From positions 928,001-992,000 of the forward strand of contig CAWJET010000001.1 in the NCBI GenBank assembly GCA_963842085.1: a stretch of DNA of 64,000 bases. Direction: 5' to 3'. Position numbers and translations under genes: made by a program. Within the stretch, counting starts at the first letter, position 1, and each line of letters begins with the position of its first letter. Shown here piece by piece: positions 29,798 through 44,846 of this stretch. This stretch comes from an uncultured delta proteobacterium. Lineage in GTDB: Bacteria; Desulfobacterota; Binatia; Binatales; Binataceae. Below the pieces are notes generated by a model. The model made no database searches and was not told where the DNA came from. It saw only the letters and a program-made list of their open reading frames with translations.

Positions 29798-30720
29798 GGC
29801 TGCGGAAAACGGCGCTCGCGCATCGCGCGAGCGCCGCGACAGCTGAGTGGGAGGCAAGGTCCCTGCCGAGAATGTAATCCGCAGCGTGCTGTGCTTGGGC
29901 GGCGGCGAGAATCACTAAGCGGCGGTCATCACGAAGCCGCTTGAGCCAGCCAGCCACGTATGCGGCCTGATTCGCGATCACCACGTTTGAGATTCCGGCT
30001 TCGGCGCAAAGGTATGCTGCTCCCATCTCCGCTATGAGTTCTTCTTTGGAGTACACAGCGGAACCGAACGCAGTTGCATACGGTTATGCCCTCGCGCGCA
30101 AGCCGCTTCGGATGTCCGCTGCTGTGGGTCAATTCATGCAAAAGCGTTGCGCTGTATTCTTCAGCCGATACGAACAGATTGCGCGGTGGCATGGTCACGC
30201 GATCGGTCATACTGTTGTAAAAAGCCTTCGAGCCTGCGTGCTGAATCTCGGGCGGCTTCGGCATTGCGGCGACTATCCGGTCGGCAGCTTCGATCCGATC
30301 GTGTTCGTGCGTTGCGATCTTCGGGAGTTTGTCGAGCGCGGCTTGCGGAAGCTCGCACTGTTCCAGATTGAAAACGCGATAGTAGCGCAATAAAAATCGC
30401 CGGCCCGATTTCTCGTTTGGCTGGTCGTTGTTGGTGTCTTCCGTCGTCTCTCCGGCGTCATCAACTTTCCAAAAGATGACGATTGTACTTTCCTCGCCCT
30501 TGCGAACGTGACCGCCCAATTCGTTCGCCTGGCGCATCGTCAACCAGAAGGGGGAAACGTACTTCGAGGCCGAGAGCAGAAAGTGATTGACGCCTCGATA
30601 AGGCTTCTTGCTTACGATATTGCGCGGCAGTCCGGTTGAAGTCCACGGCCTGCGCCACGGGACAAACCCCTGTTCAAGTAAATTGATTATCTTCTCGGTG
30701 ACAATTGCATAAACGTCCAT
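29775..30720 (-). pseudogene. ardC: ArdC-family antirestriction / ssDNA-binding protein, frameshifted
   Basis: VPWRRPW, YRGVN, GGHVRKGE, LLHELTHSSGH; +1 shift near 30079 then YSKEELIAEMGAAYLC...YVAGWL. Confidence 0.85.
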
Positions 30721-30797
30721 GGTCGTAATCTCCGAAATTGAAATTGTTGGGTTTGAAGAGAGAGCCGCTTTCGCGGCTCTCTCCTGATCGGTGAAAG

Positions 30798-31178
30798 CTA
30801 GAATGGGATGTCGTCGCCCGCCTGCGCCTTGGGCGCGTTGCCGTTCGCGCGATTCCCAAGCAAGCGCATTTGAAGCGCGATGATTTCGGTGCGGGTGCGC
30901 TTTCCGCTTCCGTCCTTCGCCTCGTACTGGCGGGTTGTCAGCCGTCCCTTGACGTATACCTGGCGTCCCTTGGAAAGCAGGCGCTGGTAGTTGTCCGCGA
31001 GCTTCCCGAAAGCAACGATTCGATGCCATTCGGTGCGTTCCTGCTGCTCGCCGTTCCGATCCTTGAATCGTGCCTTGGTTGCGACTGAGAAATTCGCCAC
31101 GTTCTGCCCTGACGGCAGTGCGCGAACCTCGGGATCACGGCCCAGATTTCCGACCACGATTGCTTTGTTGATAGACAT
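30798..31178 (-). CDS. ssb: Single-stranded DNA-binding protein (mobile-element type)
   Basis: MSINKAIVVGNLGRDPE, TEWHRIV, C-terminal DDIPF. Confidence 0.95.
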   Translation of the reverse strand: MSINKAIVVGNLGRDPEVRALPSGQNVANFSVATKARFKDRNGEQQERTEWHRIVAFGKLADNYQRLLSKGRQVYVKGRLTTRQYEAKDGSGKRTRTEIIALQMRLLGNRANGNAPKAQAGDDIPF

Positions 31179-36469: not shown

Positions 36470-37771
36470 TGTCCCTACCAAAAAGCTCCGAAAGCGTTGA
36501 AAAGTCTGGTGATTTATTTCGGTCGGCCGTAGTGTCGCCGGCATGCACTCACTCTTCTCGGAACTCTTCTCATGGCTCACCTGTCGGTTTCGCGGCCGCG
36601 TAGAATTGGAGCTCGAGGTCATAGCGCTCCGCCATCAACTCGCCGTCCTGCGCCGCCAGCGGCCCGGACGCACTCAGCTTTTCGCGATTGATCGCCTAAT
36701 TTGGGTCTGGCTCTACCGGCTGTGGCCGCGATTCCTGGAGGCGATGGTGTTGGTCAAGCCGGCAACGGTAATCAAGTGGCACCGTCAGGGCTTCCGGCTG
36801 TTTTGGCGATGGCGCTCGAGATCAGGGCGACCCTCAGTAGCTCGCGAGGTTCGCGATCTGATTCGGCAGATGAGCAGCGCGAACCCACTCTGGGGTGCGC
36901 CCCGGATCCACGGCGAGCTGCGCAAGCTCGGCATCGAAGTCAGCCATGCGACCGTTGCGAAGTATATGGTGCGAAGGCGGGGAACACCTTCTCAGAACTG
37001 GCGGACTTTCCTGCGGAATCACACCGAAGGAATCGCCGCCATCGACATGTTCGTTGTAGCATCCGCTTCGTTTCGGCTGCTCTACGTCGTGATCGTTCTG
37101 GCCCACGATCGCAGGAAGATCATACGCACAGGTGTCACTGAGCATCCGACCGCGGCTTGGATCTCGCGGCAGGTAACCGATGCATTCCCATGGGGCACGG
37201 CGCCCCGGTATCTGCTGCGAGACCGCGACGCATCGTATGGCTCGGAGTTTCGCCGCCGAGTCGAAGCAATGAACATCACGGAAGTCATCACGGCACCGCG
37301 ATCACCTTGGCAGAACGCTTACGTCGAGCGAGTGATCGGATCGATACGGCGCGAGTGTCTCGATCACCTCGTGATCTTCAACGAGCATCATCTGCGGCGC
37401 GTCATGTCTTCGTACGTCGACTACTACCAATGCACCCGCACGCATCTTTCGCTCGACAAGGATTGTCCCGACTCTCGGCCGATTCAGCATCGCAGCGCCG
37501 GAAGAGTCGTCGCCATTCCAAAAGTCGGTGGCTTGCATCATCGCTACGAACGTCTCGCCGCTTGATTCGTCTCGACTCCTGCTCACCAATCGTTGCGCGG
37601 GCTGCCGCACAACGTCGTCTGAGGCTCTATGCATCGGAGGGTTTTTCGATCTCGAAGAGGGGACCAGCCGTTTGTGGTGCAGATCGCAGTCCATCATTTG
37701 AGCGCATCCTTTTGATAGCAATTGTCTCTGCCGCTCGAATTCCGATTCAGACGGAATTTTTGGCAGGGACA
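36470..37771 (+). mobile_element. Insertion sequence (~1.3 kb) with TGT...ACA termini
   Basis: Left TGTCCCTACCAAAAA, right (reverse complement) TGTCCCTGCCAAAAA; flanks CCC|...|GGG; no direct target duplication seen. Confidence 0.85.
36543..37565 (+). CDS. DDE transposase, integrase core (rve) domain
   Basis: NPLWGAPRIHGEL, AAIDMF, LLRDRD, PWQNAYVERVIGSIRRECLDH, GGLHHRY. Confidence 0.95.
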   Translation: MHSLFSELFSWLTCRFRGRVELELEVIALRHQLAVLRRQRPGRTQLFAIDRLIWVWLYRLWPRFLEAMVLVKPATVIKWHRQGFRLFWRWRSRSGRPSVAREVRDLIRQMSSANPLWGAPRIHGELRKLGIEVSHATVAKYMVRRRGTPSQNWRTFLRNHTEGIAAIDMFVVASASFRLLYVVIVLAHDRRKIIRTGVTEHPTAAWISRQVTDAFPWGTAPRYLLRDRDASYGSEFRRRVEAMNITEVITAPRSPWQNAYVERVIGSIRRECLDHLVIFNEHHLRRVMSSYVDYYQCTRTHLSLDKDCPDSRPIQHRSAGRVVAIPKVGGLHHRYERLAA

Positions 37772-37779
37772 GGGTCGAA

Positions 37780-38655
37780 TCATTGCCAGCGTCGCGGCGC
37801 CGTGACGAGCCTATGGACGCCGAGCGCGTCGCACCAGCGCTCGAATTGCGCGCGCGGCACACCGCCGAACTTCAGGTCGTCGAGCAAGGCCTCGAGCGGG
37901 ACCGTGTCGATCAGCGTTGCCAGCTTGCGGTAGAGGAAAGCTTCGTCGCGCCTTTCGACGAGTGTCGCCCCGAGCTGGAGCGCGCCGCGTGGCTTGACCT
38001 TCCACTGGGATGCATCAGCGGGAATCCGTTCGAGATGTTCGTAGGCGCCGATCAGCATGGCCGCGCTTTTCTTGCCGAAGCCGGGCAGTCCGGGAAAACC
38101 GTCAGCACTGTCGCCCGTCAGCGCCAGGAAGTCGGGCATGCTGTCGGGTCCGAAGCCGCGCTCGGCGCGAAAGGCCGACTCGTTCGTCACTTTTTTCTGG
38201 CGCCGATCGACCTGCACCACCCGGTCGCGCTGTAAGCACTGGCCGAGATCCTTGTCCGGCGTGAGAATTCGCACCTGCTCGACCTCTTCGCGAAACCGGC
38301 GAGCACCGCTGGCGAGTCCATCATCGGCCTCGTACTCGCGCATCGGCCACACCGTCACGCCGATCGAACGGACCGCGTCTTCGGCCGCGTCGAACTGAAC
38401 GCGCAGCTCGGGCGGAACACCCTCATCACTCTTGTATGGCGGATACAGGTCGTTGCGGAACGAACGAATCGGGTTGTCGAACGCCACCGCAATGTGCGTC
38501 ACCGCCTCATCCGTGTCATGGAGCAGCGCCAGAATCGACTCGACGATGCCGACTGTAGCCTTGGCATCCGCGCCTGATGGATCGCGGTGAGCGGGGCGCG
38601 GCGAATAGTGCGCGCGATAGAGCTCGTAGGTCCCGTCGACGAGATGCAGCCTCAC
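37780..38655 (-). CDS. 5'-3' exonuclease / flap endonuclease
   Basis: LVDGTYEL, FRNDLYPPYK, YEADD, DKDL, LTGDSADGFPGLPGFGKKSA. Confidence 0.92.
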   Translation of the reverse strand: MRLHLVDGTYELYRAHYSPRPAHRDPSGADAKATVGIVESILALLHDTDEAVTHIAVAFDNPIRSFRNDLYPPYKSDEGVPPELRVQFDAAEDAVRSIGVTVWPMREYEADDGLASGARRFREEVEQVRILTPDKDLGQCLQRDRVVQVDRRQKKVTNESAFRAERGFGPDSMPDFLALTGDSADGFPGLPGFGKKSAAMLIGAYEHLERIPADASQWKVKPRGALQLGATLVERRDEAFLYRKLATLIDTVPLEALLDDLKFGGVPRAQFERWCDALGVHRLVTAPRRWQ

Positions 38656-38850: not shown

Positions 38851-39489
38851 ATGGCACTTCACATTGGAAGCGTGGCGCCGGATTTTACGCAGGAATCGAC
38901 CGAGGGACCGATCCATTTTCATCAATGGATTGGCGACAAGTGGGCCATTCTATTTTCGCATCCCAAGGACTTCACCCCCGTCTGCACGACCGAGCTCGGC
39001 ACGGTGGCTAAGCTCAAGAGCGAGTTCGACAAGCGCAACATCAAGGCGATCGGAGTGAGCGTCGACGACGTGCCGTCGCACAAGAAGTGGGTCGGCGATA
39101 TCGAGGAGACGCAGCACACCAAGATGAACTTCCCGATTCTCGGCGATTCGGACAAGAAGGTCTCCAAGCTCTATGACATGATTCATCCCGAGTGGAACGA
39201 CACGTTGACGGTACGCTCGGTCTTCGTGATCGACAATAACAAGAAAATCCGCCTGACGCTGACCTACCCTGCAAGCACCGGGCGCAATTTTCAGGAGATC
39301 CTGCGCGCGATCGACTCGCTGCAGCTCACCGACAAGTACCAGGTGGCGACCCCGGCCGACTGGAAGAAGGGCGAGGATTGCATAATCGTGCCGGCGCTGC
39401 AGGACGAGAAGGTTCTCAAGGAAAAATTCCCCAAGGGCTACAAGGTAGTGAAGCCTTACCTGCGGATCACGCCCGACCCGAGCAAATAA
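38851..39489 (+). CDS. 1-Cys peroxiredoxin (Prx6)
   Basis: FSHPKDFTPVCTTE, YPASTGRNF, YLRITP. Confidence 0.95.
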   Translation: MALHIGSVAPDFTQESTEGPIHFHQWIGDKWAILFSHPKDFTPVCTTELGTVAKLKSEFDKRNIKAIGVSVDDVPSHKKWVGDIEETQHTKMNFPILGDSDKKVSKLYDMIHPEWNDTLTVRSVFVIDNNKKIRLTLTYPASTGRNFQEILRAIDSLQLTDKYQVATPADWKKGEDCIIVPALQDEKVLKEKFPKGYKVVKPYLRITPDPSK

Positions 39490-39755: not shown

Positions 39756-39950
39756 ATGGCACGAATTACCGTTGAAGATTGCCTGGAAAAAATTCCCAAC
39801 CGCTTCGAGCTGGTGCTCGGCGCGGCGCGCCGCGCCAAACAATTGCTCAAGGGCGCGCGGCCGCTGGTGGAATCGGACAACAAAGAAGTAGTGACGGCGT
39901 TGCGCGAAATCGCCGCCGGCAAGGTCACGATCGAAGAACCCGAAACCTGA
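39756..39950 (+). CDS. rpoZ: RNA polymerase omega subunit
   Basis: [34 protein letters not shown]. Confidence 0.97.
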
Positions 39951-40057
39951 CCGGGCACGATCGAGCCGACAAGAACCGACACCGCTGCTCGCCGCCGACG
40001 GCTCGAGCATCGGTGTCCCTATTCCGTGCCAACATGTCGTGAAGCTGGAGCGATCCC

Positions 40058-41191
<1,134 letters not shown>

Positions 41192-41277
41192 CTTTCGCCA
41201 GTTTACCCCATTGCCGCTGATAGCCGCCGCTTGCGATAATGTCGATTGAGGCGGAGGCGCAAGGAGACTGCAATCGA

Positions 41278-42009
41278 ATGCGAGAACGCAGTTGCGCGCT
41301 GGTGGTGGTGGGTAACGAAATCCTTTCCGGCAAGGTACAGGACTCGAACGCGTATTTCGCGGCGCGCGAGCTGCGCAAGATTGGCGTCGCGCTGTCGCGT
41401 ATCGCAACCATCCCCGACGAGCTGGCGCTGATCGCGGGCGAAGTCGCGTATTGCTCGCGCAACTTCGATTTCGTGATCACGTCGGGCGGCGTCGGCCCGA
41501 CGCATGACGATCTCACGATGGAAGGGGTCGCGCGCGCGTTCAACCGGCGCCTGGTGATCAATCCCGAACTGGAGCGTCTCATCCGCGAACATTTCCGCGA
41601 GCGCTCGCTCGACGCCGGCCTCAAGATGGCTGAAGTGCCTGAGGGCGCTGTGCTTAATGAGGCGGGCGACATCCGGTTTCCGACCGTGCAGATCGAAAAT
41701 GTGTACGTGCTGCCCGGAATTCCGCAACTGTTCGAGGCCAAGCTGCGGGCGCTCAGCAGCCGCTTTGCGACCGATCCGTATTTCATGCGCGCGATTTACC
41801 TGACGGCAGGCGAAGGCACGATCGCCGGGCACCTGAATGACTGCATGCGCAATTTTCCCGAGTTGATGCTGGGTTCGTATCCGCGGATCGGAGACCCCGA
41901 CTACCGCGTAAAGTTAACGCTCGAGTCCAAGAACGCTGACTACCTCGAGCGCGCGTTTCGTCATCTGATGGGGCTGTTGCCGGCCGAGGCGGTGGTCAGG
42001 ACGGAGTAG
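41278..42009 (+). CDS. CinA-like molybdopterin-binding-fold protein
   Basis: VGNEILSGKVQDSN, SGGVGPTHDDLT, VLPGIP, GSYP. Confidence 0.88.
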   Translation: MRERSCALVVVGNEILSGKVQDSNAYFAARELRKIGVALSRIATIPDELALIAGEVAYCSRNFDFVITSGGVGPTHDDLTMEGVARAFNRRLVINPELERLIREHFRERSLDAGLKMAEVPEGAVLNEAGDIRFPTVQIENVYVLPGIPQLFEAKLRALSSRFATDPYFMRAIYLTAGEGTIAGHLNDCMRNFPELMLGSYPRIGDPDYRVKLTLESKNADYLERAFRHLMGLLPAEAVVRTE

Positions 42010-42042
42010 CAATTTATGCCCGAGGTGGTGGAGGAGGAAATC

Positions 42043-42642
42043 ATGAGGAAAGGAAGCTTAAGATTCGCGTTGATCGCAATCGGATTGTCGGTGATGCTGG
42101 CGATGCCGGCCGGTCCGCTCGCTGAGTACGCCGCCGCGCAGACGCAGCCCGCCGGCGCGGCGACGCCGACGCAGGTCCCGCAGCCGCCGGACAATAGCGT
42201 CAACTGGCCGGGCGCAGGTTACGGCGCAGGCGCCCTGCTCTGCAACGTTCTCTACATCCCGGCCAAGCTGGTTTACGCGCTGCTCGGCGGTATCGTTGGC
42301 GGCGGAACATATCTGATAACTGCCGGCAATTCGCAGGCCGCCAACACCGTGTGGCGCAGCGCACTCGGCGGCGACTACGTCGTGACGCCGCAAATGCTCG
42401 CGGGCCAGCAGCCAATCAACTTCAGCGGGCCAACCGACACTCCGCCTGTCGCTCCGGCGCCCGTGACGAGCTCGTCGTCGGGCACGACGACGACTGCGAG
42501 TTCGGGCGGCGTCGCGCCGATAACGCCGCTGCCGGCGTCGGGCACGTCCGCGACCGCATCGTCGTCGACGGCAGCCGGGCAGCCGCTGGATCACGGCAGC
42601 GGTCCGGCGGGCGGAACGGCGTCGGGATCGAATATCGAGTAG
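42043..42642 (+). CDS. Exported / membrane hypothetical protein with Ser/Thr/Pro-rich tail
   Basis: GAGGAGG RBS, signal peptide, YIPAKLVYA..GGDYVVTP. Confidence 0.75.
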   Translation: MRKGSLRFALIAIGLSVMLAMPAGPLAEYAAAQTQPAGAATPTQVPQPPDNSVNWPGAGYGAGALLCNVLYIPAKLVYALLGGIVGGGTYLITAGNSQAANTVWRSALGGDYVVTPQMLAGQQPINFSGPTDTPPVAPAPVTSSSSGTTTTASSGGVAPITPLPASGTSATASSSTAAGQPLDHGSGPAGGTASGSNIE

Positions 42643-42697: not shown

Positions 42698-42843
42698 GTC
42701 ATCCTGACGATGCGAGCGACGCGGGGTTTCCGTCATCCTGACGATGCGAGCGACGCGAGGTTTCCGTCATCTTGACGATGCGAGCAACGCGAGCTGAGGA
42801 AGGATCTCGGACAGCTTCGCGTAAGCGAAGCCGGTTCCGGTTT
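42698..42843. repeat. Three tandem 34 bp-period REP-like units plus tail
   Basis: GTCATCCTGACGATGCGAGCGACGCG at 42698, 42732, 42766 (third with 2 changes), then GAGGAAGGATCTCGGACAGCTTCGCG. Confidence 0.85.
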
Positions 42844-42923
42844 CTTAATCGCGCGATGCGCGCGCTCGTTTTAGACTTGCCGGAGACGTTCCGCGGCACT
42901 TTTCTGATCTCGGAGGATCGCGT

Positions 42924-43274
42924 GTGAGAATGATCCGCTTTCTGTGGAAGTCGACCTGAACGACTTGCCGCGACGCAAGAAGTTTCTTGCGTAAGGATCT
43001 CGGCGCCGAGCTCGACGAGCGCGACTACGCGAAAGTTCCGCTTAATTCGGCGGAGCTGAAGAACCTGTTCGCGGGCCGCGACCCGCGCGATTTTCTAAAC
43101 CCGCGCAGCCCCGCGTTCAAGGCGATGGGCCTGGCAGGCAAATCGCTAACGCCCGAGCAGGCGTTGGCGCTGATGGCGAAGGAGCCGAACTTAATCAAGC
43201 GGCCAATCGTAATCGTCGGCAAAGAGATGATCGCAGGCTTCGATCGCGATAGGCTGCGCGCCGCGGTGAAGTAG
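42924..43274 (+). CDS. ArsC/Spx-family thioredoxin-fold selenoprotein (UxxC)
   Basis: GGAGG RBS, GTG/ATG, MIRFLWKST-TGA-TTCRDARSFL continuing in frame into the 42987 ORF (PNLIKRPIV..GFD); hairpin 42973-42992. Confidence 0.85.
42973..42992 (+). promoter_or_regulatory. Putative bacterial SECIS hairpin
   Basis: ACGCAAGA-AGTT-TCTTGCGT, starting 14 nt after the in-frame TGA (42957-42959); G is the second loop base. Confidence 0.7.
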
Positions 43275-43281
43275 GTCGCAG

Positions 43282-43360
43282 AACCGGTACCGGCTTCGCT
43301 GGCGCGAAGCTGTCCGAGATCCTTCCTCAACTCGCGTTGCTCGCGTCGTCAGGGACGGAA
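43282..43360. repeat. Inverted copy of the 42766-42843 repeat
   Basis: Reverse complement reads CCTGACGACGCGAGCAACGCGAGTTGAGGAAGGATCTCGGACAGCTTCGCGCCAGCGAAGCCGGTACCGGTT. Confidence 0.85.
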
Positions 43361-43427: not shown

Positions 43428-44846
43428 ATGGCATTCTCTGACGATCTGTTTTTCGCTCCCGCCAACAAACTCGTTGCGATGCTGCGAGCGCGCGACGTGT
43501 CTTCGGTCGAGATGGTCGATGCTTTTATCGAGCGGATCGAGACGGTCAATCACGGCCTCAACGCGGTCGTCACGCTGGTCGAGGACCGCGCGGCGGGCGA
43601 AGCGGAGGACTCTGATCGGCGTCTGGGCGGCAATGGCGAGGTTCGCCCGCTCGAGGGGCTGCCGATCACAATCAAGGATTCGATAATCACCGAGGGCGTG
43701 CGCTCGACCTGGGGCATGAAGATTTTTGAGCATCACGTGGCGAAAGAGGACGCGCCCACTGTCGCGCGGCTGCGCGCGGCCGGCGCGATCGTTATCGGCA
43801 AGACCAACACGCCCGAGATGACGATGGACTACGACTGCGATAATCCCGTTTTCGGGCAGACCAACAATCCGTGGAATCGCGAGCGCGTGCCCGGCGGCTC
43901 AAGCGGCGGCGAGGCGGCGGCGCTCGCAGCGGGGATGTCGCCGCTGGGCTTGGGCTCGGACTATCGCGGATCGATCCGGGTGCCGGCGCATTTCTGCGGT
44001 GTGGTCGGGCTCAAGCCGAGCTGGGGAACGATCCCCTGCAGCGGGCATATGGCGCCGAGCGTTGCCGCGCCGCCGCCGCTCGCGCACATGGCGACGATCG
44101 GCCCGATGGCGCGCTACGTGGACGACCTGACGCTCGCCTACAACATCGTTAAAGGGCCGCATCCAAGCGCGCCGTACACGGTGCCATCACCAGACGTCCA
44201 TCCTGAAAAAATCGATCTGAAGAAAGTTCGATGCGCGATCTTTACCGACGCGTGCGACGTTCCGGTCACGTCCGACACGCGCGCCGCGATCGAGCGCGCC
44301 GGGCGCGAGTTGCAGAAGACGGGAATCGTCGTCGAGGTGGTGAAGCCGCCAGTCGACGAGGGCGAGCGGTTGTGGTGGGCGTACCAGGGCGCGGACGGCA
44401 ATCAACTTGTGCTGGAGGCGCTGGGCGAGAGCCTGAAGCTCTCGCGCGAGCGGCTGCGAAATTTCGTGGTTGCGGGCGAGGGAAAGTCGGCGGCCGAGTT
44501 CTTCAAGATCGCGATGGAACGCGACGCCTGGCGCGTGCAACTGGCGGAGTTCATGGAACGCTACCCGATAATTCTCGGACCGACGTTCTGCGTGACCGCG
44601 TTCAAGCACGGCGCCGCCGAGGTCGAAATCGACGGGAAGAAATATCCGTACATCCTTGCGAGCTGGCCGGTAGCGTGGGGCAATTGCGCAGGGCTGCCGG
44701 GCGCGGTCGTGCCGTGCGGAAGAGATCGCGAAGGGCTGCCGATCGGACTGCAGATCGTTGGGCGCGCGTTTGGCGAGGAGACCGTGCTGGCAGTCGCGAA
44801 GGCGGCGGAAGCGGCGCTGGGCGGCTATCAGAAACCGCCGCTGTGA
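43428..44846 (+). CDS. Amidase (amidase signature family)
   Basis: GLPITIKD, GKTNTPE, GGSSGGEAA, GSDYRGSIRVPA, GLPIGLQIVG. Confidence 0.93.
   Translation: MAFSDDLFFAPANKLVAMLRARDVSSVEMVDAFIERIETVNHGLNAVVTLVEDRAAGEAEDSDRRLGGNGEVRPLEGLPITIKDSIITEGVRSTWGMKIFEHHVAKEDAPTVARLRAAGAIVIGKTNTPEMTMDYDCDNPVFGQTNNPWNRERVPGGSSGGEAAALAAGMSPLGLGSDYRGSIRVPAHFCGVVGLKPSWGTIPCSGHMAPSVAAPPPLAHMATIGPMARYVDDLTLAYNIVKGPHPSAPYTVPSPDVHPEKIDLKKVRCAIFTDACDVPVTSDTRAAIERAGRELQKTGIVVEVVKPPVDEGERLWWAYQGADGNQLVLEALGESLKLSRERLRNFVVAGEGKSAAEFFKIAMERDAWRVQLAEFMERYPIILGPTFCVTAFKHGAAEVEIDGKKYPYILASWPVAWGNCAGLPGAVVPCGRDREGLPIGLQIVGRAFGEETVLAVAKAAEAALGGYQKPPL

Follow-up and report, generated by a model that had tools for sequence, protein, structure and literature searches.

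The stretch analysed here (the window) comprises 64,000 nucleotides (nt) of an uncultured delta proteobacterium of the Binataceae (contig CAWJET010000001.1, positions 928,001 to 992,000), and all coordinates below are those of the window. The gene in question encodes a small protein of the ArsC/Spx family on the forward strand, interrupted by one in-frame TGA. A mechanical list of open reading frames (ORFs) contains its downstream part only, as 42987..43274 (+), with a TTG start, 95 amino acids (aa) and no redox motif, as the preliminary description had remarked. Upstream and in frame, a ribosome-binding site, a start and the codons for Lys-Ser-Thr followed by TGA were each found where that description had placed them. 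The start of the gene is the GTG at 42924 (alternatively, the ATG at 42930), which is codon 1 in our numbering. From there the peptide runs M-R-M-I-R-F-L-W-K-S-T to the TGA and continues as T-T-C-R-D-A-R-S-F-L into the annotated ORF. Read through with selenocysteine (Sec, U) at the TGA, the product has 116 aa and the motif U12-T-T-C15; in P0001, which begins at ATG, these two residues are numbers 10 and 13. Genes with TGA at this codon are called Sec forms below, and those with TGC or TGT are called Cys forms. The features of the locus are listed in Table 1.

Table 1. Features of the candidate selenoprotein gene and of its neighbourhood (window coordinates).
Feature	Position	Strand	Remarks
Ribosome-binding site GGAGGA	42912-42917	+	read directly; 6 nt 5' of the GTG start
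Full coding sequence, predicted ArsC/Spx-family selenoprotein	42924-43274	+	116 codons + TAG; translated with TGA = U
In-frame TGA, codon 12, predicted to be read as Sec	42957-42959	+	aligned to the first Cys of CxxC
TGC, Cys15, presumed resolving Cys of UxxC	42966-42968	+	TGC/TGT in 59/59 Sec forms and 22/22 Cys forms
Putative Sec insertion sequence hairpin within the coding sequence	42973-42992	+	stem 42973-42980 with 42985-42992; AGUU loop 42981-42984
TTG, Leu22, false start in the 3' arm of the hairpin	42987-42989	+	start taken by ORF callers, giving a 95-aa product
prx	38851-39489	+	
rpoZ	39756-39950	+	TIGR00690, 72.9 bits vs cut-off 23.6
rpoH	40058-41191	+	NF005143, 274.8 bits vs cut-off 241
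cinA-like gene	41239-42009	+	
Hypothetical gene, 208 aa, no family	42016-42642	+	
Amidase gene	43428-44846	+	

A homologue scan of genome contigs, in a collection with one genome per species, was used for the comparison with relatives. It yielded 80 loci, nearly all of them from metagenome-assembled genomes labelled Binataceae or 'uncultured delta proteobacterium', and 81 genes were compared when the window was included. The codon aligned with the TGA of the window is TGA in 58 of the 80 loci and TGC or TGT in 22. Counting the window, this gives 59 TGA, 20 TGC and 2 TGT, and no other codon alternates at this place. Full-length Cys homologues, up to 92% identical, have the sequence WKSTCTTC here, and the codon also aligns with C10 of Spx. 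The proposal that the TGA occupies the position of the first Cys of the family CxxC was therefore borne out, and the Cys/TGA pairs among homologues, which the preliminary description had named as a check, are present.

From the start codon to the Sec/Cys codon the distance is 11 codons in 78 of the 81 genes and 10 in the remaining 3, and a GGAG, GAGG or AGGA motif is found at most 20 nt from the start in 34 of the 59 Sec-form genes. At the six conserved upstream codons, 85 departures from the majority codon were synonymous and 9 were non-synonymous in the Sec forms (354 cells), compared with 37 and 4, respectively, in the Cys forms (132 cells). None of the 59 Sec forms contains an additional stop codon. 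The conserved start, the mostly synonymous upstream change and the lack of extra stops indicate that the 11 codons preceding the TGA are translated in frame in the genomes that carry it, and the codon pattern points to purifying selection both before and after the TGA.

These data bear on the reading of the TGA as an ordinary stop, which arose by nonsense mutation, in a pseudogene or through a sequencing error and which would leave a 95-aa protein started from the TTG at 42987, or no product at all. ORF callers do give 42987-43274, 65 among the 120 top-ranking public cluster representatives have 95 aa, and no Sec machinery was found in the window or in the related neighbourhoods (see below). 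On the other hand, the same TGA recurs in 58 of 80 species-level genomes together with a conserved start codon, upstream codons that change mostly synonymously and a frame that is unbroken across both parts. In addition, the 95-aa product would be without strand 1 and the whole beginning of the active-site helix, and its TTG 'start' encodes a Leu within the 3' arm of the hairpin described below. We consider an ordinary stop very unlikely.

The Sec and Cys forms are interleaved on the gene tree, which was built from the other columns of the gene (279 columns) and is unrooted and poorly resolved. The best tree requires 14 changes between the two states and its starred branches force at least 4; as low a number of changes was reached in 1 of 500 shuffles. 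This interleaving indicates that the difference in codon is not the history of one clade.

The TGA of the window is followed by a hairpin of the kind expected for a Sec insertion sequence (SECIS). Its arms, ACGCAAGA and TCTTGCGT, form eight perfect Watson-Crick pairs around an AGTT loop, the base of the stem lies 13 nt and the loop 21 nt from the TGA, and the calculated energy is -9.9 kcal/mol for the 20-nt hairpin or -10.3 kcal/mol for 21 nt. As outlined in PMC13188914, the model of bacterial SECIS elements (bSECIS) asks for 3-9 nt in the loop, 4-16 bp in the stem, 16-37 nt between UGA and loop and a minimum free energy of -7.5 kcal/mol or lower; one of the first two loop positions is a G, usually with G or U after it. 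The 4-nt AGUU loop, the 8-bp stem, the spacing of 21 nt and both energies fall within this model, so that the perfect stem and loop noticed in the preliminary description do stand at SECIS distance.

For the relatives, a hairpin was counted when its stem had 7 bp or more and its energy was no higher than -7 kcal/mol. It was present in 59 of 59 Sec forms vs 2 of 22 Cys forms, and the two groups differed both in pairs (Mann-Whitney p = 1e-10) and in energy (p = 7e-7) when relatedness is ignored. In the window the hairpin is encoded by the codon string GCA AGA AGT TTC TTG. The stem codons of the Sec forms are GCA (54/59), AGA (55/59), AGT or GGT (58/59), TTC (58/59) and TTG (55/59), whereas the Cys forms encode the same residues mostly by GCG (14/22), CGN (16/22) and CTG (13/22). 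Across 24 genes of the window these hairpin codons are seldom used: GCA, AGA, AGT and TTG account for 11.6%, 4.2%, 7.6% and 14.1% of the codons of their amino acids. Four Sec forms (L059, L060, L063 and L067) have GCC-AGG...CTG instead, three concerted changes after which a 7-bp stem forms one base out of register around a GUU loop. The G-U of the loop is kept in every variant seen (AGUU, GGUU, GGGU and GGUC). Judged from these comparisons, the SECIS appears to decay in step with the difference between Sec and Cys forms. The preliminary description had held that close relatives all having TGC or TGT, with a hairpin that is not conserved, would speak against a selenoprotein; what we found is TGA in most loci and a hairpin that is kept in the TGA forms and decayed in the Cys forms.

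The two Cys forms that still pass the hairpin criterion were matched by eye to L035 (-10.2 kcal/mol) and L021 (-9.1 kcal/mol), and three others (L013, L019 and L050) retain GCA-AGA/AGG codons but miss the criterion. On a tree that is unrooted and poorly resolved, these five could be recent Sec-to-Cys changes.

The hairpin also bears on the reading in which a near-cognate or suppressor tRNA inserts Trp, Cys or Gly at the UGA, or the codon is reassigned in the lineage. Such decoding would suit the lack of a tRNA-Sec or sel gene in the window and the related loci, and the decoding by Sec is itself deduced from the sequence. However, TGA is the genuine stop codon of the same gene in several loci, including L040, L046, L064 and L070, and the ORF list shows that many ORFs of the window end in TGA as well; UGA is therefore not reassigned in this lineage. 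The recoded TGA lies exactly on the redox Cys, where only TGC and TGT alternate with it, and the SECIS-type hairpin accompanies TGA and TGA only. Insertion of another amino acid is thus extremely improbable.

With Sec at codon 12, the translated protein was compared with family models and solved structures. It matches Pfam ArsC (PF03960) with 60 bits (cut-off 24), and residues 7-111 cover positions 3-78 of the 79 in the profile. Among NCBIfam models TIGR01617 (Spx/MgsR) comes nearest; the protein stays below its cut-off (61.1 bits vs 75.05), as does the orthologue P0040 (67.6 bits). The more distant full-length relatives P0128 and P0131 exceed this cut-off with 79.7 and 79.9 bits. The conserved domain cd03032 is, as we take it, a Spx-like subgroup of ArsC proteins, which would match this placement. 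An AlphaFold2 model based on a 21-row alignment had a predicted local distance difference test score (pLDDT) of 94.3 and a predicted template modelling score (pTM) of 0.83. In the model, Sec lies just ahead of helix 1 (model residues 11-23), whose first turn contains the Cys; this is the arrangement that CxxC motifs usually have in thioredoxin folds. Foldseek placed the model about equally close to Spx (1z3e), YffB (1rw1) and E. coli ArsC (1i9d), with template modelling (TM) scores of 0.84, 0.85 and 0.80, respectively. By sequence, Spx proteins rank first among solved structures, with E values from 5e-12 (3l78) to 2e-9 and Sec aligned to C10 of Spx. By sequence and model, the product is a 116-residue thioredoxin-fold protein of the ArsC/Spx/YffB superfamily with a predicted active site of Sec12-Thr-Thr-Cys15.

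Taking the observations together, we hold it highly probable that 42924-43274 (+) encodes a thioredoxin-fold selenoprotein with the active site Sec12-Thr-Thr-Cys15, in which the UGA is recoded and which acts as a redox protein. The hidden ArsC/Spx-family selenoprotein gene of the preliminary description, with its UxxC and SECIS hairpin, is thus supported by the TGA in 58 of 80 loci and by the hairpin tied to it. Actual Sec insertion and the redox chemistry, which we infer, may proceed as follows. The UGA at 42957-42959 would be recoded as Sec in the bacterial manner: the hairpin that starts 13 nt downstream, with the G-U of its 4-nt loop 21 nt past the UGA, would recruit SelB-GTP-Sec-tRNA(Sec) as the ribosome meets the UGA. 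The product would then be a selenol/thiol redox protein with Sec12, just before helix 1, as the nucleophile, and Cys15, in the first turn of that helix, would resolve it through an intramolecular selenenylsulfide. Such chemistry would match that of CxxC proteins, save that the first residue is more reactive.

Several results weigh against this reading. The 61-nt fold around the hairpin has a z of -0.98, with 32 of 200 shuffles folding as well, and a hairpin as good as this one, with 8 bp or more and at SECIS spacing, follows 13 of the 1,807 TGA triplets of the window (0.7%); a looser hairpin, which agrees with a simplified form of the model with an uninterrupted stem, follows 136 of them (7.5%). 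In the alignment of the 59 Sec-form segments no double-sided compensatory change was seen, three of the eight pairs are invariant and the covariation score equals that of every shuffle. RNAalifold applied to the same segments did not recover the named stem and gave a weak other pairing (-2.96 kcal/mol). The phylogenetically independent pairs on the starred branches, all four in the expected direction, give an under-powered p = 0.125. Rfam showed no family at the gathering score in the window and only two chance-level matches in 42900-43060. ARAGORN found no tRNA gene in the window and no tRNA-Sec in the 80 related loci, Pfam found no SelA, SelB or SelD domain in 59 ORFs of the window, and tblastn with SelA, SelB and SelD of E. 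coli (NC_000913.3) gave no match in the window or in 1.32 Mb of the related loci; since these loci cover only the syntenic neighbourhood in each genome, the negative result for the machinery there is uninformative. The biochemical function is read from family resemblance only. Finally, a 281-nt insert bearing repeats and a terminator-like hairpin splits the gene of the window from its usual upstream partner, which weighs on the expression of the Sec gene in the window.

In spite of the RNAalifold result we keep the named hairpin, because the single-sequence folds all give it and because, across the alignment of the 59 Sec-form segments, 91.3% of 392 cells pair in the named register vs 15.6-62.5% in slid ones. 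The hairpin alone is not beyond chance. The comparison with relatives puts it there: 58 of 80 related loci carry TGA where the family has Cys, and fixation of the hairpin codons is confined to the TGA forms.

A second selenoprotein gene was looked for in the window among 21 TGA sites with a Cys/Ser-type context and a downstream frame rich in G and C at third codon positions, and only the present gene looked real. The candidate at 39776-41188 was rejected, being an out-of-frame ORF that overlaps rpoZ and is in frame with rpoH across a stop.

If the protein is a Sec form of the ArsC superfamily, it could be a true glutaredoxin-coupled arsenate reductase with a catalytic Sec. It is a member of Pfam ArsC, and Sec-containing 'arsenate reductase' families appear in selenoproteome surveys (described in PMC2398784 and PMC13188914). 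However, the arsenate reductase models are far from matched (TIGR00014, 37.1 bits vs a cut-off of 106.05; PRK10026, 24.3 vs 242), the Sec arsenate reductase listed in the same two sources has the motif UxxS and not UxxC, the conserved neighbours are rpoH, the cinA-like gene and the hypothetical gene, and a Pfam scan of 59 ORFs of the window named no arsenic-resistance gene. Since TIGR00014 reaches a third of its cut-off and no ars gene is named in the window, we do not file the protein as an arsenate reductase, a reading that we regard as highly improbable.

The preliminary description had proposed a Sec-based redox enzyme or a Spx-like regulator, and the regulator is the weaker half of this proposal. 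As a Spx-type regulator, the protein would sense oxidants through U12xxC15 and, when oxidised, bind RNA polymerase as Spx does on the alpha subunit's C-terminal domain (alpha-CTD), redirecting transcription. TIGR01617 is indeed the nearest NCBIfam model, Spx proteins are the best solved sequence relatives and the fold is close to that of B. subtilis Spx (TM 0.84). According to an alignment with the residues given in PMC8501982, the UxxC falls on C10/C13 of Spx and the RPI motif and R60 are retained. A conserved place downstream of rpoZ, rpoH and cinA would fit a stress cluster: the cinA-like gene lies ahead of the Sec/Cys gene in 75 of the 80 loci and an ORF shadowing rpoH in 62.

The same alignment holds points against a regulator. 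The account of Spx in PMC8501982 names CXXC, G52 and RPI as conserved features and lists the contacts with the alpha-CTD, DNA and sigma; there, G52 is essential for alpha-CTD binding and the Tyr263 partner in the alpha-CTD is a feature of low-GC Gram-positive bacteria. Helix alpha7 (119-131) of Spx contacts sigma region 4 and is the target of ClpXP/YjbH. In our alignment U-T-T-C stands opposite C10-T-S-C13 and K-R-P-I opposite R91-R92-P93-I94, and UXXC, RPI, R60, R92, T11 and R14 are kept. G52 is aligned to the Pro of a near-invariant R-D-P-R-D. Among the alpha-CTD hydrogen-bonding residues R47, T53, D54, E72, L76, Q77 and Y80 only D54 is identical; in loops, these alignments may be one residue off. 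The protein ends at residue 116, so that the sigma-contacting helix is absent. The score also stays under the TIGR01617 cut-off, the fold is equally near to YffB and ArsC, and the gene neighbourhood by itself is weak evidence. Because of the Pro in place of G52, the single residue kept of seven and the end ahead of helix alpha7, we do not file the protein as a Spx regulator, and a Sec-containing regulator of the Spx type seems unlikely to us. It is likely that the protein is not a true arsenate reductase and not a Spx regulator of the Firmicute type.

Another form of this idea is a Sec-based transcription switch, in which Sec12/Cys15 would serve as an oxidant sensor of unusual sensitivity in a Spx-like protein that contacts RNA polymerase through a surface other than that of Firmicute Spx and belongs, with rpoZ and rpoH, to a stress regulon of Binatota. 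We think this distinctly unlikely; if true, it would be the first selenoprotein transcription factor, and the N-terminally truncated gene calls among distant relatives (see below) hint that proteins of this kind could be widespread. Among the papers found to name both Spx and selenoproteins, none deals, judged by title and abstract, with a Sec-containing Spx.

The predicted selenol/thiol redox protein can be set beside several known systems. It resembles Spx (PDB 1z3e, 3gfk, 7f75 and 3l78) with E values of 5e-12 to 2e-9, TM scores of 0.71-0.84, the redox pair at C10/C13, the RPI motif and R60. It differs from Spx of B. subtilis and streptococci in the Sec for the first Cys, the Pro for G52, the one of seven alpha-CTD contacts and the score under the TIGR01617 cut-off, and also in having 116 aa vs 131 aa, without helix alpha7 or the ClpXP/YjbH tail. 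YffB (PA3664, PDB 1rw1; 114 aa) is of similar length and gives the top TM score of the solved structures, 0.85, but its sequence match is weaker than that of Spx (E = 1.6e-7) and the score for the ArsC family reductase model PRK10853 is 27.7 bits vs a cut-off of 121.

Among selenoproteins, 'ArsC-like' ones were reported in 2006 as two sequences, from Desulfotalea and Desulfuromonas (PMC1794560), and the Global Ocean Sampling selenoproteome includes an 'Arsenate reductase 2' assigned to cd03032 with the motif UxxC (PMC2398784). From what these two sources describe, Sec forms of ArsC-like proteins are, as had been stated, reported but little studied. The protein of the window shares with 'Arsenate reductase 2' the ArsC-superfamily thioredoxin fold, the Sec as the first residue of UxxC and the detection by Cys/TGA pairs. 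It differs in coming from soil and peat Binataceae, with a conserved SECIS and synteny of its own, and not from marine metagenome reads; the two are set side by side by description only. With NF041106, the ArsC family (seleno)protein model whose family is described as 'Arsenate reductase-like protein, UxxC' (PMC13188914, PMC9312934), it shares superfamily, motif and a similar length (107 model positions). It scores only 20 bits against a cut-off of 85, and none of 32 relatives tested reaches this cut-off (best, 41 bits), which places it in a different subfamily; for every one of these 32, TIGR01617 was the best or near-best match.

The mechanism and the UxxC motif are therefore already known, UxxC ArsC-like selenoproteins having been listed since 2006-2008, and for this reason no new kind of biology is opened. 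What is new is a subfamily under the NF041106 cut-off, its phylum and the scale of its mis-annotation. The gene provides indirect but strong evidence for the use of Sec by Binataceae, an uncultured soil and peat lineage. In the papers searched for Binatota together with selenocysteine, the sole mention was an entry in a reference list. At least 11 Binatia genomes in Table S1 of the BSepDB paper were considered and set aside, as that table presents them as genomes analysed and not as Sec users. The interleaved Sec and Cys forms, together with the decay of the SECIS, also offer a compact natural series for Sec/Cys exchange and SECIS relaxation.

The extent of the mis-annotation was seen in a search of 5.8 billion protein clusters, which gave 1,105 relatives; the source names, Candidatus Binatus or Binataceae, make the window that of a Candidatus Binatus relative and place it in the phylum Candidatus Binatota. 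Among the best 120 of the 1,105, 55 are full-length proteins of 113-133 aa with WKSxCxxC, and the other 65 are stubs of 95 aa that begin L/M-R-K-D-L-G and are without the active site. The full-length orthologues have 113-119 aa save for two with longer N-termini, and none of the 120 contains U or X. NF041106 misses the family, and a dedicated family model would mend the annotation in dozens of species-level genomes. Farther out, the best 150 of 715 representatives at 50% identity (E <= 0.001; P0122-P0270, about 30-60% identical) include 74 full-length proteins with CxxC and 59 of at most 105 aa without an N-terminal CxxC, mostly starting just past the CxxC position. These protein data hint that uncalled Sec forms are common well beyond Binataceae, with some of the short ones perhaps being fragments at contig ends.

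The genes prx, rpoZ and rpoH, which the preliminary description had placed nearby, all lie upstream on the same strand. The 208-aa hypothetical gene stands directly ahead of the Sec/Cys gene in 46 of the 80 loci (tblastn), and in 51 of the 80 a same-strand ORF of at least 150 codons ends about 60 nt or less from the start, by a rough, frame-blind count. From this spacing of same-strand ORFs we infer that the Sec/Cys gene and the hypothetical gene likely form an operon in most relatives, and the 208-aa protein may be a functional partner of the Sec/Cys protein. The hypothetical protein is rich in Gly, Ala and Ser, has a hydrophobic N-terminus and matches no Pfam or NCBIfam family.

The insert that separates the two genes in the window is made up of three tandem 34-nt copies at 42698-42799 (100%, 97% and 76% identity) and of one copy of a dispersed repeat, into which the third tandem copy merges. 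This dispersed repeat is separated from the ribosome-binding site of the Sec gene by a terminator-like GC hairpin at 42850-42864 (+), whose T run extends to about 42874. Six terminator-like sites were counted in the region vs 1.0 expected, and no sigma-70-like promoter was found in the region of the Sec gene. Should the terminator at 42850-42864 work, a separate promoter for the Sec gene would have to lie within about 40 nt.

A 70-nt inverted repeat, with copies at 42773-42842 (+) and 43282-43351 (inverted) that are 93% complementary, brackets the Sec gene. The same element of about 70-100 nt occurs upstream of the orthologous gene in L029, L025, L015, L012, L014 and L024, and also at unrelated places, about 8.7 kb upstream in L013, about 10 kb downstream in L011 and about 1 kb downstream in L029. 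A role of this inverted repeat in the Sec system or as part of the SECIS was rejected, as it is a dispersed repeat found at unrelated places. It looks like a dispersed repeat of Binatus genomes similar to repetitive extragenic palindromes (REP) or miniature inverted-repeat transposable elements (MITE), with an internal hairpin, GCTTCGC-GTAA-GCGAAGC, recognised by eye.

A 462-aa ORF at 40019-41407 (-) was considered as a conserved neighbour and rejected: it has no family and is the shadow of rpoH, which is identified on the (+) strand by NF005143. By tblastn this shadow appears 'conserved' in 62 of the 80 loci, a trap for gene calling by the longest ORF in a genome as GC-rich as this one. The 5'-3' exonuclease gene at 37780-38655 has no counterpart in any of the 80 loci by tblastn. 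Farther upstream, 5-13 kb from the Sec gene, an ArdC-like antirestriction/zincin gene (29929-31029, -; PF08401 and PF18818) and an integrase-core transposase gene (36543-37565, +; rve_3) suggest a mobile-element remnant near the prx-rpoZ-rpoH cluster.

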